From: Octopus vulgaris | Taxonomy: Eukaryota | Assembly: GCA_951406725.2 (NCBI GenBank) | Contig: OX597826.1 | Location: forward strand, 50,158,001 to 50,222,000 | DNA: 64,000 bases | Reading direction: 5' to 3' | In this document: positions 38,385 to 46,474 of the stretch, piece after piece | Numbering within the stretch: position 1 is the stretch's first letter | How the letters are laid out: each line of letters starts with the position of its first letter | Translations under genes and position numbers: made by a program | The notes under the pieces: generated by a model | Told to the model about the DNA's origin: nothing | What the model saw: the letters and a program-made list of their open reading frames with translations, nothing else | Database searches by the model: none

Positions 38385-39187
38385 CTTCCTAGCATTTTTA
38401 CCCATGGACCCTTTGCTTCCTATATTGCTCGGATGGACCTTACTAGCCAGTCGGTGTTTTAAAAAAATCCTATATTTTTATAATTAAATATTGGGTTGTC
38501 CGGAAAGTACGTGCCGATTTTTAAAGGAAAGAAAAAGGTCAATAAATACTTGCCATTTACATTTTTAATCAACCAAATATGAACCATTTTGTTGCACAAT
38601 GCGTCTCTATCTTTCCTTTAATATGAAAATACCCTCTTCCCAGAATTGAGGTGGTTTCATGGCAAAGAATTCATCAAGGTATCTTTTTACGTCATCCAAG
38701 GAATTGACATTTTTACCATTAAGACTATTCTGCAGAGGCCTGAATAAGTGGAAATCCGAAGGAGCAATATCTGGTGAATATGGAGGGTGGGGTAACACAT
38801 CCCAGCCGAGCTGCAGCAATTTTTGCCTGGTTCCCAAAGCATCAAGTGCCGAAAATGAACTTTTTTATCTTCCATTTTAAAGGATTACAGAATTAACACA
38901 GGTTAAACCTTCTTCTACGAAAAGATAGCTAAAACCGTGCTCTAAATGGAGGTATAGTCAAATCCTATTTTATGGACTCAAGCATGTTCTAAAATAAGTC
39001 GAAAGGTAAGTTACTATAAATCGGCACGAACTTTCCGGACAACCCAATATCATTAGGAATTGTACCAAAAAAATTAAGATATTTTGTGTATTGTAAGAAG
39101 TAAAACCAATTTATTGCAGATAACTTTTAACAGCAAAATCTTGTATGGAGCCCCAAGGACCATATGGATCTCAGTTGATAACCACTG
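38385..39187. mobile_element. hAT-like MITE interrupted by the mariner; same family at ~51510-52265
   Basis: Ends GTTGATAACCACTG (CAGTGGTT.TCAAC-type terminus); CCATGGACCCTTT..TTCCTAT..CTAGCCA.TCG.TGTTT.AAAAAATCCTAT shared with 51528-51600. Confidence 0.55.
38491..39047 (-). mobile_element. Mariner transposon, internally deleted (557 bp)
   Basis: 30-bp TIRs TTGGGTTGTCCGGAAAGT(A/T)CGTGCCGATTT (1 mismatch); TA TSD at 38489-38490 and 39048-39049; transposase start MEDKKVHFRHLMLWE joined to the C-terminus LGWDVLPHPPYSPDIAPSDFHLF. Confidence 0.95.
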
Positions 39188-39762: not shown

Positions 39763-42751
39763 CATATATATATATATATGGGAAATTCTGTCTATGGGTG
39801 TGTTTGTTTGCGGAGTTGTTAGCTAACTTCTACATCGTTTTATCGATTTTGATGAAACTCGATATGTGAGTAGAACTCATGTCTGGAAACCTCATGACAT
39901 ACTCAGATTGGTGAAAAAATCGATAATAGGGTCCCTGGAAGGGATCTTTATATATAACTAATATACTTTATTTTAACAGCCAAGGGAAATAACCCGTTCA
40001 TTTTCCTATATTATTTGGTATATATCAAATTGAGTGTGCTTATTTCTTAGTATTTGAACTGTTAAAGTTATTTTCGCAATTTATCCAGTACAACCCTTAA
40101 ACAAGTAAATAGCATTTTCCTAAACAATAGATCCACTTATTTAGGTTAGTGACTTATTCACGAATATACCATGAATATGCCTTTCATGTCACTTCAGCCA
40201 ATTGACAAGCGCTGCATGAACTGTTCTGCTTTTAGACAAATGCACTGTCAACACAAAGGCCACACCCTGTTTACATATAGGAACAACTTAGAATCTCTCT
40301 GTACAGCTTGAAAATGGCCAGCGTGTATATTTCACAGACGACAATGCTCGAAACGTAGTTCTGAATCCATGAGAGACCACTTTGACAGCTTTCTTCAAAT
40401 TATGCCAATGTGATCTGTTTGCCCGAACACTGTCGTATATAGAGGTCCCCGTGAACTATACCTGGGAACACAACAGATGAAACAGACGCATTGAGGTCTG
40501 GGAAGGAGATGCTGTCTTCAGAAGTGGGACCATCGGGTGGGTGTACACTGTGCACCCTAATCAGCAGGAGTGCTTCTTTGTGCATCATCTGCTACATACT
40601 GTCAGAGGTCCTACATCATTTACAGACTTTCGAAGACACAATGGGAATTCTGCACGACCTATAGAGAAGCCTGCACCAAACATGGATAACTGGAGGACGA
40701 TACTCACTGGGACCAGACACTGGAGGAGGCAGCAGTCAGTACAGCACTAAGTCAACTGCGCCAGCTATTTTATATCAGGTTGATGACATGTGGCTTGCAT
40801 GAACCTCACAAGCTTTGGGCGATCCACAAAACCAGCATGGCAGAGGACATCTAGAAAGGATTCAAAGGCAAACCTCAACGGAAATTGCCACGTTCAGTAA
40901 CGCCATTTACAATGAAGTATTACTTGACCTGGACACCCGAGTGCAAGATATGGGAGGTCAAGGCAATTCCACATTTGATCTGCCTCAACCGGAGCAGACA
41001 GCAAACAATCTCGCAATTGAGTACCTGCGAGAAATCAGCTATGACATCGAGGAAATAGCTGATAAAGAACACAAACTGATGGAGGACCAACTGGGTGTTT
41101 ATAACACCATTATTTCGAGCATGAAAATGAAAGAGGAGGTCTTTTCTTTCTGGATGCTCCACTGCTAAGTGGTGGCCGCACAGCTCATTCCTGTCTCAAA
41201 CACCCTGCAACATCAGTCGTGAATGCAGGTTGATCATCTGGGATGAAGTGACAATGAGCCATAAGGTTCCTTTGAATCTCTTACATATCCCTTCAGGATC
41301 TGAGACACAACAACAGGCTCATGAGATGTGCTACAGTCTTGCTTGTAGGAGACTTTAGACAAACCCTTCCAGTGGTTCCAAAAGGGACAAGAGCTGATTA
41401 AAGTCGTCTTACCTATGGAGTCGTGTGCAAAAGCTAAAACTCACAACAAACATGAGAGTGCAGCTCAATGGTGATGATGCAGACAGAATCTTCTCAAAGC
41501 AACTGTTGGACGTCGGTAATGGCACTTCAGTTGGCGAGAAGTATGGCCTGTAAGCTCGCCTTTTGGATATATGGTATCTGATTTAAAGGAACTAATGAAC
41601 AAGGTGTTTCCTAACCTGAGGAACGAAGTTTGCATACCACAACTGGCTGAAAACCCGTTCCATTTTAGCTCCAAAGAATGTGGGAATTGATGATTTGAAC
41701 TTTAAATTTCTGGAACAGTTGCCAGGTGAGCGTCACATCTACAATTCCATTGCCGCTGTACTGAACATCGATGAAGCTTTGAATTATCCAGTTGAATTCT
41801 TGAATAGTCTAACACCACCAGACCTCCCACCTCACAACTTGCACCTCAAGATTGGGGCACCAGCTATGCTGATTCGGAACCTCGATCCACCAAAGTTTTG
41901 CAATGATGATGATGCCAACAATCTTGAAGACAACAATCTTGACTAGTAAAGCAAGCGGTGAGCCTGTAATCATTCCTAGAATTCCACTTATTCCCTTGGA
42001 GATGCTTTTCCAGTACAGGCGCCTGCAATTCCCGTTGAAACTGAGCTTTGCAATGAGCATTAACAAGGCCCAGGGGCAGTCCTTGAACGTGGTAGGTCCG
42101 AACCTTGCGTAACCAGTTTTCTCCCATGACCAACTTTATGTGGGATGCTCAAGAGTCGACAATCCTAATCATATGTTTATTTATGCTCCACAAGGAAAGA
42201 GTAAAAACGTTGTTTATCAAGAAGCTCTGCAAACTTTATAAGATTCACCAAATCATCAGGTATTTATTTTTTAACTATAAAATTTGTAAGTGTTGTAAAT
42301 GTATTGATAATCTACATGTTATTTTATTTTAAAATCTATATACAAATTTATTTGTACGTCTGCTGTAAAACTAAATGTCAGTCTGTTTCTACATTCATTG
42401 AAATCTATTTCAACACTAGCTCTCCTGAGGGAAATATTCTCTGGGAACGCACAAAAGGCCTTTTCGGATTTTTTTCCTTTGAATTGTTATTATCTCATAT
42501 CTGATTAGCCTATTATTACGTAACATGCGTCACGATTTTAATATTCATACCTTATTGGTATTTCCTCCTAAGTTATATATACTATGGCAACGCATTAAAG
42601 GCCTTTTCGGGTATTCTCTGTAAATGCACAAAAACCGTTTTAATGGCTACGTACTTCGTATTGTTGTTATTGGATTAGCGAAACAATTATGAGAACAGAT
42701 CCAAGGGATAGACCCCCGCTTCTCCGGAAATTACCAGGTACGTCGGCTAAG
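39763..42751 (+). mobile_element. Decayed Helitron (RepHel PIF1-type helicase pseudogene at ~40250-42240)
   Basis: LENGQRVYF, ETTLTAFFKL, YTVHPNQQECFF, VRGPTSF, FFLDAP, LIIWDEVTM, GDFRQTLPVV, LTTNMRV, YPVEFLNSL, LIRNLDPP, QFPLKLSFAMSINKAQGQS, QLYVGCSRV, KNVVYQE; degenerate 3' hairpin plus CTAA at 42724-42750; both ends approximate. Confidence 0.88.
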
Positions 42752-43370: not shown

Positions 43371-43607
43371 TATATATATTATTTATATTATTATATGATT
43401 GAGCGCCACGCATCCTTTTCCAAGTAAGTTTTATATCTTAATAATTCTGATGCGCACTTTATACGATCTTTTCACCCCTTTCGTTTTTCTCTTTCGCTCG
43501 CTAATTCTTTTACCTCCTTTTCTCCCACTATTCTATCCTATTACTCTGTCACTCTCTCTCTCTCTCTCTCCCTCACTCCTCCCTTGCTCACGTAGCTCCC
43601 ACGTGAT

Positions 43608-44002
43608 CATCGGCCATCTTTCTTTCTTCTCCTAACTTGTGTTTCTTGTCTGTCTCCTGTCCAAGCTTGATTTACGCGTTCGCCACTGCAACCTCGTTTT
43701 GGCTTAGCAGCCCCCCCCTGTTTTTTTTCACTGTCCTGTTTGTGTTGCCAATTTTGACCATCCAAAAATCCCAAATTTTATTTAATTTGTTTTGCGGGAG
43801 CAACTGTTTTATCGAAAGCGTATATTGTTGTTAAATGCGCGAAATATGAGATTAGGAAAACAACCAGCAACTAATGAAAAGTCGTTCTTTATGTTGTTTG
43901 TCATGTTTTCCATATTTCTCTCCCGTTGATTGCATATTTAACTCGTTAGTTATCGTTTTTCCTGTTGTTTACACAGTTGGCGATGTCCCGTACCCGTATA
44001 TG
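43608..44002. mobile_element. Fold-back family member (same family as 32110-32694, inverted)
   Basis: Reverse-complement homology to ~32215-32560, e.g. GTTTTATCGAAAGCGTATATTGTTGTTAAATG. Confidence 0.75.
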
Positions 44003-44017
44003 GTTATATATATATAT

Positions 44018-44120
44018 ATTCAAATTCGTTGGTGCTCTTGAGTTTCAAGAGTGATGATAGTCGTCAATGGCTGACGACTAGCATCATGCCTGAAACTCAA
44101 GAGTACCAACGAATTTGAAT
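44018..44120. repeat. ~103-bp imperfect palindrome between (TA)n tracts, carrying a hammerhead-like core
   Basis: ATTCAAATTCGTTGGTGCTCTTGAGTTTCA...TGAAACTCAAGAGTACCAACGAATTTGAAT. Confidence 0.85.
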
Positions 44121-44130
44121 CAAACTGTTT

Positions 44131-44216
<86 letters not shown>

Positions 44217-44220
44217 GTAT

Positions 44221-44967
44221 ATACTAAGTAATTAAGGGTTTAGCAACGATTTGCCTCACCACACACCGAGTTTAGAAATAGCAGTCAAAGAGTTATAGCT
44301 ATTCCTTCTACTAAAAGGGAGATCTCAGTAAAACCACAGCACTTAGAAGGCAGACGCAGGCAAGAGAGAAAGAAATGACGACAATCATACAATATTAAGT
44401 CACATACGGACGTACGTTTCGAAATTAAGTTTTAGGAAAGCATAAGAATTAGATAATTATGTCTTACCCAACTTTTTTTCTCATCAGCGTAGGACACTAC
44501 AATTATGAATAATTGTATATTAAATTTGGAGATACTAGAAGACATCACCTCAACTCCTAGTATCAGAGCGAGCTAAAGCCGTTACCAGTATCACCAAATT
44601 CAAAGTGTGAATGAAAGTTTGTGTCACCAACCCCCTCCCACCAGCGTGCTGTCAGGACAAGATGTTGTGGTCATTTACTGGGATGAAATATGGTTATCAG
44701 TAATAATATAGGGTGAAATCAATTAATTTGGAATAATTATTAATTTCACCAAGTAGATTTCGGCATGTAAAAGCCCCATTCGTAGGTGACTTAATATTGT
44801 ATGATTGTCGTCATTTCTTTCTCTCTTGCCTGCGCCTGCCTTCTAAGTGCTGTGGTTTTACTGAGATCTCCCTTTTAGTAGAAGGAATAGCTATAACTCT
44901 TTGACTGCTATTTCTAAACTCGGTGTGTAGTGAGGCAAATCGTTGCTAAACCCTTAATTACTTAGTA

Positions 44968-44968
<1 letters not shown>
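44221..44968. mobile_element. 748-bp non-autonomous fold-back element with 188-bp inverted repeats, probably Penelope-like (PLE) derived
   Basis: 44221-44408 is the reverse complement of 44781-44968 with 3 mismatches by eye; flanked by (TA)n on both sides; contains a hammerhead ribozyme. Confidence 0.85.
44405..44491 (-). ncRNA. Type I hammerhead ribozyme
   Basis: Minus strand: TACG-CTGATGA-[GAAA AA AAGTT GGG TAAG ACATAA loop TTATG CTT TCC TAA AACTT AA TTTC]-GAA-AC GTAC GT-C^CGTA. Intact core, stem I TACG/CGTA, long stem II closed by G-C, minimal stem III with palindromic GTAC loop, GUC cleavage triplet. Confidence 0.8.
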
Positions 44969-45007
<39 letters not shown>

Positions 45008-45194
45008 CACGCACACACATATATATACATACACACACACACACATACATACATACATACATACATACATACATACATACATACATACATACATACATAC
45101 ATACATACACACACATAACATACATACCTTCTATTTGTTTTCCTACCCCGTTTTCTATTTTTCATTCTCTTCGGCTTTTCTCTCCGCAACCCTT

Positions 45195-45247
<53 letters not shown>

Positions 45248-46474
45248 GCATGTATATGCGCTCACGCAAACACACACACACACACACATATGTTGGTGGT
45301 GGTATGTATAAACACAGACATTTGTCTCCTGTCTATCTTCCTTTCTCTCCGCCATCGTTTTCTCCTCACTCCGCCTCTTTCTGTCTCTCCCTCTCTCTTT
45401 ATATATATATATGTATCCCGCTCTCTCTCTCTCTTTATATATATATATATATATATATCTTCCTCTCCCTCTCCTTCTCTCACTCCCTCTCTCTTCCACA
45501 TTTTGCTCTCACTTTCTATGGCTCCACCCACTCTCAATGATTTGCACATAAATTCAAAGATCGCCTTATCGCACATAGCAGGTGTTGATTTAATCATCCA
45601 ACAGAAGCAGGAATAAAAATAAATGGAAAGAAAGAAAGAAAGAAAGAAAGAATGAAAGAGAAAGAAAAGAAGGAAGGAAGTAAGACGAAACGAAACGAAA
45701 GAAAGGGGGTGCAATGAGAAAGAGATTGTGAAAATAACAACGAGTAGGAGTGAAAAACAAGACTTGATACTATCACATTCAGGCCATGCGTGTAACATAT
45801 CAGAACATAGGTCGTCTGTTTTTTGTCCAAATATACTGTACGTGCAGCTATTTAGAGAGGAGAGAGGTCAGAGGTGACGAACACATGGTTTATTTCAGTG
45901 CACGCCATTTTCCCTTCAAATTGTTGACCGTGATGGAGTGACCAACATCAGAAACGGTATCAGTACGTTAAGTACCAGTCATATACGGCGAATGACAAAG
46001 AGCGATTGACTGACAGAAACTGTAGTACTGTTTAGTGTAATGTGGTGTTGCGTAATGTTGTTGTTCTTGTTCTTATTCTTTTTCTTGTTCTTGTTGTTTA
46101 GCCCATTCAGCCGCAGCTGGACAAATCTACGATCAAAGATATTTCAGCCATGGCCATCATTCCTATTCTTCGGGCATTGTCTACCTTGGAGTACAAGATC
46201 AAATGAAATGTGTCCTTTTTTTTTTTATTAAATAAAACACAAAGTCGCCCCTTCATCAGTTGTCGGCTATCTGTGTGTAGCATGTCGAACAGATATGAAG
46301 CAGCGTCTATTTTCTTTTTAATCTGCATGGTAGCACCTTACAAGGGGCAGAAAATTTCAAGGCAACGCTAAAGGAACTACTGGGTGTTTAAAGGAACCGT
46401 GATTTTACTTAGAAATAGCAATTTTAAGCAAATTGAAATCAAAAATTTTGTCGGTCTTAAAACATGAACCAGAT

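Follow-up and report, generated by a model that had tools for sequence, protein, structure and literature searches.

A 748-bp fold-back element lies at positions 44221 to 44968 of a 64,000-nucleotide stretch of the Octopus vulgaris genome (contig OX597826.1), here called the window, between (TA)n target tracts at 44133-44220 on its left and 44969-45002 on its right. Its 188-bp arms (44221-44408 and 44781-44968) are complementary along their whole length save for three mismatches, at 44260/44929, 44354/44835 and 44404/44785, and the pairing ends at 44409/44780; the size, setting, arm length and mismatch count given in an earlier note on this DNA are thus borne out base by base. Because both flanks are (TA)n, the target-site duplication of this copy is unreadable. 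The changes at 44404 and 44835 are private to the window copy (0/41 other loci) and the change at 44929 is nearly so (1/41), so that the 1.6% divergence of the arms probably arose after insertion. The neighbourhood is transposon-dense, with fragments at 38607-38864 and 41620-41946 that by their motifs resemble mariner transposase and Helitron/PIF1 helicase, respectively. About 100 bp to the left of the element is a second small fold-back in TA (44020-44121), the centre of which falls inside a plus-strand hammerhead-like motif (CUGACGA at 44071, GAAAC, GUA and a 3-bp stem I), and which is probably a remnant of another family of Penelope-like elements (PLEs).

The minus strand of the element carries a canonical type I hammerhead at 44403-44493, recognised by its core pattern and by alignment to the Rfam model, with stems that covary across 36 distinct variants. 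Stem I is formed by 44493-44488 and 44408-44403, between which lie the CUGAUGA core (44487-44481), a stem II region of 60 nt (44480-44421), GAAAC (44420-44416) followed by the palindromic loop GUAC, and the GUC triplet (44411-44409), with the predicted cut between 44409 and 44408. Rfam Hammerhead_1 aligns over 44493-44403 with all core positions at 18.9 bits (E 0.026), under the gathering score of 34, probably because of a 56-nt insert in stem II; an Rfam scan over 43500-45800 did not list the hammerhead at 44403-44493, and the Rfam miRNA matches over the region are sub-threshold TA-repeat artefacts. The hammerhead-core pattern has five matches in the 64-kb window, and by eye only that of the window element has a stem I of at least 4 bp. 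Its helix I of 6 bp, helix II of 4 bp plus an extension, and helix III of 2 bp with a palindromic loop agree with the definition of the canonical metazoan type I hammerhead, which has a helix I of 6 bp, a helix II of 4 bp, a helix III of 1-2 bp and a palindromic loop (PMC4209133). The complete type I hammerhead and cleavage position proposed in the earlier note therefore stand, and by this definition its label 'minimal' does not. The core is complete, and the 3' strand of stem I has T at 44404 where the family has G, a substitution shared by none of 41 other loci, 33 of which have the family form. The change cuts stem I from 6 to 4 contiguous pairs, and a fold constrained to the hammerhead lies 5.0 kcal/mol above the minimum free energy (MFE) in the window copy versus 2.2 kcal/mol in another copy, L004.

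The 748-bp MITE-like form had been proposed as the unit of the element, but the unit is a 577-nt repeat, arranged head-to-tail in arrays of up to 6 units with one hammerhead in each, and related subfamilies have units of 583-594 nt. When the 2.8-Gb, microsatellite-rich genome was searched with the element, 2,378 candidates were returned, and among the best 40, which were scored, a match over the full 748 nt occurs nowhere but at the window's own locus; the non-self matches cover a 562-nt part at 93-97% identity, and neighbouring matches are separated by a constant 15-nt spacer. Mapped on the natural cut-to-cut unit, where +1 is the first base after the predicted ribozyme cut, the window element consists of two 5'-truncated copies. 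The direct copy (44221-44782, minus strand) runs from unit +204 to +577, over the ribozyme cut, and on from +1 to +188, and the inverted copy (44781-44968, plus strand), an arm of the type seen in PLEs, covers +1 to +188 and belongs to the same subvariant. They meet head to head at 44781-44782, where the arm end (+1, +2) and unit +204, +205 overlap by 2 nt of CG; because of this microhomology the inner end of the arm lies at +1 to +3, and not uniquely at +1.

Abundance was gauged in two ways. One 18-mer taken from the unit occurs 4,392 times in the genome as an exact match, a count that includes sister families and several matches per locus; a control occurs 0 times. In a position-ordered sample, the first 58 of 63 loci listed on contig C1 (~60 Mb), 46 loci belong to the family, or ~0.7-0.8 per Mb, from which a family of about 2,000 loci is extrapolated. 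Among the 46 loci, 21 are fold-backs and 25 have no inverted arm, and (TA)n stands at the 3' end of 62 of the 68 family runs. Constant boundaries of the 748-bp form, one of the checks proposed in the earlier note, did not emerge. What is constant is the 3' end, which falls into two fixed classes, at +188/+194 and at +285 to +298, and 5' ends are scattered across the whole unit. The second, or 'tail', class corresponds to 44688-44701 on the minus strand, where it is internal to the window copy and not an end. Between the two 3'-end sites lies a strong hairpin (unit ~235-274; 44712-44750, minus strand), identified by folding and by alignment to sister families, in which it also occurs, and it is a candidate protein-binding element.

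The unit is non-coding, with no long frame inside it. Neither the element itself nor any family copy among the loci screened for long frames yielded a continuous reverse transcriptase (RT)/GIY-YIG ORF. Folded as a circle from cut to cut, the unit reaches an MFE of -152 kcal/mol with 63% of its bases paired (z -4.5 vs 25 dinucleotide shuffles). With non-coding tandem repeats, a type I hammerhead per unit and a self-paired monomer, the family answers to the definition of a non-LTR retrozyme as far as sequence can decide it. Units in one array share locus-specific variants, a pattern that fits a circle but also local duplication, and is therefore not counted as proof of rolling-circle copying. 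The genome holds other families of this kind. A very young sister retrozyme family with a 545-nt unit and copies 99-100% identical (L163 and L180-L209, e.g. C2:160,614,604-160,619,616; 1,661 first-look candidates) is ~65% identical to the 577-nt family over the 3' part, and has a short stem II and a different stem I. A third hammerhead tandem family, with a 485-nt unit (L260, C13:52,240,500-52,242,000; L027, L226 and L008), has a longer helix III with a palindromic loop and the same fold-back anatomy, and is a partner in the chimera L295 described below.

Conservation of the ribozyme was assessed in 201 hammerhead matches linked to the family hallmark, a number in which overlapping loci are multiply counted and which comprises 36 distinct variants. 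The core is present in 36/36 variants, which is not evidence by itself because the search pattern required it. The six pairs of stem I are kept in 36, 33, 35, 36, 31 and 36 of the 36 variants and the base pairs of stem II in 30-36, and stem I shows compensatory changes from C-G to U-A at pair 6 and from U-A to C-G at pair 4. Since the variants are related, this covariation represents few events, yet they span subfamilies and the 545-nt sister family. Stem covariation, two cut-to-cut chimeras and a small excess of ends at +1, the last two described below, speak indirectly for self-cleavage by the family hammerhead. A subfamily with a CCGAUGA core (U4C) is represented by L101, L110 and L301, and its place as upstream partner in the chimera L301 suggests that this variant still cleaves.

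Fold-back anatomy was compared at 32 loci with at least 55 nt of arm overlap, taken from L001-L129, some of them chosen for their similarity. In 30 of the 32, one arm has the short and the other the tail 3' end (p=1e-7 vs independent choice); the window fold-back, with both 3' ends short, is one of the two exceptions, and for that reason has the outline of a MITE. At 31/32 loci the two arms are much closer to each other than to the median other copy, if only slightly so at L084 and L091, although some other locus is marginally closer than the partner arm in 11/32; at L121 the arms have 4 differences in 843 nt, as against 18 for the best other locus and a median of 99. To judge from their variants, these comparisons show that both arms of a locus come from one template variant. 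The long runs in L066, L106, L115, L126 and the window stop at +175 to +215, about one unit past the +188 start, as if copying stalls on completing a circle or at a bound start region.

PLE insertions are known for 5' truncation, partial tandems, an inverted 5'-truncated copy, a tail that is often one-ended, and microsatellite targets, and the pairing of one short with one tail end in inverted insertions is described in a figure legend of the same source (PMC8557442, Fig. 2); two internal RT start sites that define the tail have been located biochemically in one PLE (PMC11167929). Fixed 3' ends, an optional tail, 5' truncation, partial tandems, an inverted 5' copy and a microsatellite target are all found in the 577-nt family. 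With high confidence, we regard the window element as one insertion of a non-LTR retrozyme, a non-autonomous tandem family with a hammerhead in its 577-nt unit. The insertion was likely made into (TA)n by the RT and GIY-YIG endonuclease of a PLE, most likely of Neptune type, and its fold-back is likely the usual inverted 5'-truncated arm of PLEs and not a terminal inverted repeat (TIR). The earlier proposal of a young non-autonomous ribozyme-bearing retroelement, as opposed to a DNA transposon, is upheld in this form, as a PLE/retrozyme kind of element in (TA)n.

Such an insertion could arise as follows. Multimeric transcripts would self-cleave at GUC, probably as dimers through the palindromic loop, a mode of hammerhead cleavage that has been described (PMC4209133). 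Re-ligation, probably by RtcB, an enzyme shown to circularise retrozyme RNA in vitro (PMC7229834), would then turn cleaved monomers into circles or, in rare cases, link them to other cleaved RNAs. A PLE protein, probably a dimer, would nick both strands of a TA tract and prime two cDNAs at two internal start sites flanking the ~100-nt structured element; a PLE protein has been predicted to act as a dimer that nicks and extends both strands (PMC11167929). Copying would cross ligated or uncleaved junctions, each cDNA would stop at a variable point, and the two would be joined head to head by microhomology. In the window copy both cDNAs would have begun at +188, one running 562 nt through the ribozyme site of a ligated or uncleaved template, and the other stopping after 188 nt, either at a cleaved RNA 5' end, to which we lean slightly, or by chance.

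Candidates for the enzyme exist in the same genome. Four young PLE families with long ORFs were found, one with a 717-aa single ORF (L160) and three, Neptune A (L220), B (L256) and C (L319-L323), with ORF1 and an overlapping ORF2. The RT/GIY-YIG frames of 776, 784 and 753 aa match Pfam RVT_1 (E 7.6e-7 to 3.5e-8), and the Pfam match to GIY-YIG is weak in two of the three frames and absent in one. The families have a CX4CXXC linker, and the label 'Neptune-type' is our presumptive assignment from this zinc-finger linker and known motifs, not from a tree. The linker has been assigned to Neptune and Nematis (PMC8557442). By eye, L160, L220, L256 and L319-L323 each contain a hammerhead-like motif with variant cores (UUGAAAA, UUGACGA, UUGACAA and CCGAAGA) that standard CUGANGA searches missed. 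Within the element itself, the 3' region of Neptune B (L256:6117-7900, L264, L265, L270) includes a 1-2 kb stretch that resembles TA/GT/CA microsatellites, so that transposition of Neptune B may spread simple repeats. At L232 (C37:133,617-134,000) a PLE RT match falls in a reported 1,861-aa frame that a frame scan of the locus did not list.

Three chimeric loci connect the family with other elements. At L301 (C5:66,724,627-66,724,647; 66.72 Mb) the GUC end of the family runs straight into a Neptune-type PLE, at the base that follows the cut predicted for this PLE. The family part, ~200 nt, is 100% identical to L101 and L110, and the PLE part is a 3'-terminal piece 98.8% identical to L311. The joint is present in both fold-back arms, which end at the short and tail ends of the PLE and differ from each other at the junction base, C vs G. 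The PLE cut was predicted by eye from a variant core (UUGACAA ... GAAAAC-CG-GUU), and stem I closes right after it, as in two other Neptune-type families. At L295 (C16:33,249,404-33,249,439; 33.25 Mb) 131 nt of the 485-nt hammerhead repeat, ending in GUA, are joined to +1 of the 577-nt family. Neither L295 nor L301 has microhomology across the joint, position 0 belonging to the upstream partner and +1 to the downstream partner. Per chimera, the two breakpoints would both coincide with cut sites with a chance of ~4e-6 and 1e-5; as the searches were aimed at one breakpoint, the fair chance is ~1/485 and 1/170 for the second. The third locus, L010 (C18:50,142,530-50,142,848; 50.14 Mb), has 319 nt of sense Neptune-type ORF1, 97.5% identical to L266, between its arms; the joint to unit +102 has no TA, as would follow from a cDNA that was begun on the retrozyme and then switched to PLE mRNA.

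The searches that found these joints also returned candidates of other kinds. The family cut end followed by foreign sequence has four matches, the Neptune chimera and three others, of which two belong to a different hammerhead family with the same core and one is a short-repeat insertion with a 5-bp duplication. A foreign GUA or GUU end before +1 has 11 matches, ten of them family variants and one L295 again, and no convincing subfamily switch at the cut was seen among 71 distinct junctions. In the literature searched, which included PMC11722881 and left aside subscription papers for the most part, supplements and repeat libraries, there was no report of cut-to-cut chimeras or of the 577-nt family. 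The family may already be catalogued in repeat libraries; the main text of an octopus repeat annotation, in the part available, names neither hammerhead nor ribozyme (PMC13282606).

Whether formed by ligation or by RT jumping, a cut-to-cut chimera requires that both RNAs had been cleaved, and the chimeras suggest in vivo cleavage and end-joining as well as PLE-driven mobilisation. The start sites used at L301 belong to the Neptune RNA, so that this locus speaks for co-ligation or jumping and not for trans-mobilisation of the retrozyme, to which L010 points, as one case. That the RT, on reaching the 5' end of a cleaved RNA, jumped to the 3' end of a second one, with no ligation, is a tentative alternative for the joining step that we hold to be the less probable of the two: the arms of L301 differ exactly at the junction base, as an untemplated base would give, and template switching does occur, per L010. 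However, both L301 arms have the same partner variant and the same joint, for which one covalent RNA is the simpler source, and RtcB joins cyclic-phosphate to 5'-OH ends, both of retrozymes in vitro (PMC7229834) and in U6/L1 (PMC6789731). The precedent for L301 and L295 is indeed found in U6/LINE-1 retrocopies, in which a 2',3'-cyclic-phosphate end is joined to the 5'-OH of a retrotransposon RNA and the product is then retrotransposed (PMC6789731); in the octopus loci, by comparison, both ends would come from the ribozymes of two different mobile elements.

Cleavage might nonetheless be irrelevant to transposition, if the family were the detached pLTR of an unfound autonomous PLE, copied from uncleaved multimers with the ribozyme idle. 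We consider this unlikely, and it overlaps with the preferred reading in sharing its origin and differing in the role of cleavage. Ribozyme mutants of a reconstituted PLE are without effect on insertion and no reads end at the cut (PMC11167929), Xenopus retrozymes match pLTRs (bioRxiv 2026.07.22.740005), and in the octopus family ~96% of passes read through the 17-nt window around the cut. The comparison with PLEs covered only a handful of families: similarity of the unit to the 717-aa family and to Neptune A does not exceed that of shuffled sequence, blastn matches to Neptune B and other PLE loci are weak, and for the three long-ORF families there is no homology above chance. Blastn or local alignment with these three and with some decayed families thus gave no autonomous PLE whose pLTR is homologous to the unit. 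Descent from a named PLE family, or mobilisation by it, is accordingly at most presumptive. Against an idle ribozyme, the two cut-to-cut chimeras require cleaved RNAs, and compensatory changes have preserved the fold in subfamilies and sister families alike. Against a detached pLTR, no ORF is continuous with the unit in the screened family loci, and nearby PLE fragments lie beyond TA tracts. Fragments beside family copies at L023, L064, L112 and L128 were considered as a parent and rejected: TA tracts or host DNA lie between them and the copies, and they were counted as insertions of their own. These short fragments have no Pfam match.

In its strong form, the proposal of the earlier note would have cleavage define the duplicated end, the 748-bp fold-back be the functional unit and arm pairing act as a ribozyme switch. 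In the window copy the arm does end at +1 to +3, so that homology to the other arm starts at the cut within the ±2 nt of the microhomology, though +1 is not the unique position. Across the family the coincidence does not hold. In the position-ordered sample, a single arm inner end out of 42 and two 5' ends out of 67 lie within -2 to +3 of the cut, end positions far from the cut carrying an error of ~±10 nt between subfamilies. Genome-wide, with an anchor at +9 to +25, 1,153 matches keep the upstream core in register vs 28 that are discontinuous at two probe bases, and the pattern used for the discontinuous matches catches about half of such events. Hand-calling reduced the 28 to 24 discontinuities between -7 and +9, after two duplicates of one event and two non-ends were dropped. 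Position +1 holds 5 of the 24, a ~3.5-fold enrichment (p=0.012 for a pre-specified site, 0.20 when corrected for 17 sites), and -1 to +2 holds 10 of the 24 (p=0.037); two of the five breaks at +1 are internal and not termini, and two of the 24 are arms of one locus. In all, ~4% of passes break in the 17-nt window around the cut and <1% exactly at it.

This excess of ends at +1 is modest, and it implies that the coincidence in the window copy may be real: the arm end is plausibly a run-off at a cleaved RNA 5' end, with chances roughly even or slightly better. At four loci (L277, L296, L297 and L326) small internal deletions or replacements lie at or beside the cut in copies that are otherwise continuous, and these could be RT errors at a ligation junction. 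At L302 (C11:99,857,896-99,857,916) the precise cut position of a family copy is occupied by a short (ATG)n-tailed repeat, accompanied by a 5-bp duplication; the repeat is probably an ordinary later insertion.

The proposed switch fares no better. When the entire minus strand is folded to its MFE, +1 to +4 are taken up by the upstream arm and the hammerhead is not formed. Read-through transcription of the minus strand would give an RNA whose upstream arm is paired to +1 to +188, which would block the ribozyme. The geometry is, however, private to the window copy, and its ribozyme, with the private mismatch in stem I, is not seen in RNA-like contigs. Contigs of four runs, assumed to be RNA, that were placed on 44221-44782 cover the unit and bridge the unit-to-unit joint in two of the four, but they cannot tell strand, ends, or circle from tandem and are not used as evidence of expression; over 44404 they show the family base, not the window base, in all four runs. 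Possible splice signals seen by eye inside the unit are not backed by joints in these contigs. A run search with the 545-nt sister locus L195 and its flanks, rather than with the window element, found no RNA run on record. The suggestion that the arms are an ADAR substrate likewise finds no support, private variants of the 577-nt family showing no A>G excess (16 A>G vs 32 T>C, p=0.24) and those of the sister family 4 A>G vs 4 T>C, although variants of fixed copies are not RNA editing. With no other 748-bp copy among the 40 scored candidates, a private stem-I lesion and the scarcity of ends at the cut, the idea that cleavage programs the duplicated end is largely refuted at the level of the family and, as a whole, very improbable. 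The window copy, as a single insertion of the retrozyme family, is an ordinary member, probably an inert dead-end fossil with a weakened ribozyme. A MITE of a Tc1/mariner-like DNA transposon with a TA target, which happens to carry a hammerhead, would account for the outline of the window copy, its symmetrical 188-bp TIR-like arms between TA tracts, but is refuted and of negligible probability, since family copies vary in length and lack constant TIRs, form head-to-tail multimers of up to 6 units, have no inverted arm at 25 of 46 loci, and show variable arm lengths and inner ends, a fixed 3' and variable 5' polarity, and outer ends that are asymmetric in 30 of 32 fold-backs.

The 577-nt family has features of two known systems. 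Like metazoan non-LTR retrozymes (PMC7229834; bioRxiv 10.64898/2026.07.22.740005), it consists of non-coding head-to-tail repeats with one canonical type I hammerhead per unit and a short helix III with a palindromic loop, has a GC content <50% and no LTR, PBS or PPT seen, is structured when folded as a circle, and co-occurs with PLEs. Its unit of 577-594 nt is longer than the 170-400 nt given in PMC7229834 but within the 51-972 bp of bioRxiv 10.64898/2026.07.22.740005. It differs from metazoan retrozymes in its mostly dispersed partial copies, its inverted arms and two fixed 3' ends, and in that no homologous pLTR was found; cut-to-cut chimeras are not described in the available text of either source. 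With EN+ Neptune-type PLEs (PMC8557442; PMC11167929) it shares 5' truncation, partial tandems, an inverted 5'-truncated 5' copy, a one-ended tail, a microsatellite target, a hammerhead upstream of the 3' end and two RT starts, and it differs from them in having no RT/GIY-YIG ORF, a canonical and not a minimal hammerhead, and a tail of ~100 nt as compared to 30-40 nt. Retrozymes have been proposed to be non-autonomous PLE derivatives on the basis of co-occurrence and pLTR similarity (PMC7229834; bioRxiv 10.64898/2026.07.22.740005).

The interest of these observations is carried by the chimeras and the end pairing of the family, and not by the window copy. With nucleotide precision, three chimeras connect the 577-nt family with Neptune-type PLEs and with other ribozyme elements, and the pairing of short and tail ends is a quantitative constraint on how PLE inverted insertions form. 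Two questions thereby become testable: whether the hammerheads of PLEs and retrozymes cleave in vivo and whether cleavage matters, one reconstituted PLE having shown no need for it (PMC11167929), and which enzyme moves animal retrozymes, for which the near-identical young retrozyme families and long-ORF PLE families of one genome are a ready panel of enzymes and templates. On balance, and by a narrow preference, we favour a shared germline pool of ribozyme-cut RNAs, in which several retrozyme families and Neptune-type PLEs would cleave, their ends would be ligated into circles and across elements, and PLE dimers would twin-prime at two coordinated internal start sites. If so, the genome would hold, in its cut-to-cut chimeras, direct proof of cleavage in vivo and of PLE-linked mobilisation of animal retrozymes, and ligation at cut sites would be a route for modular exchange among ribozyme-bearing elements.
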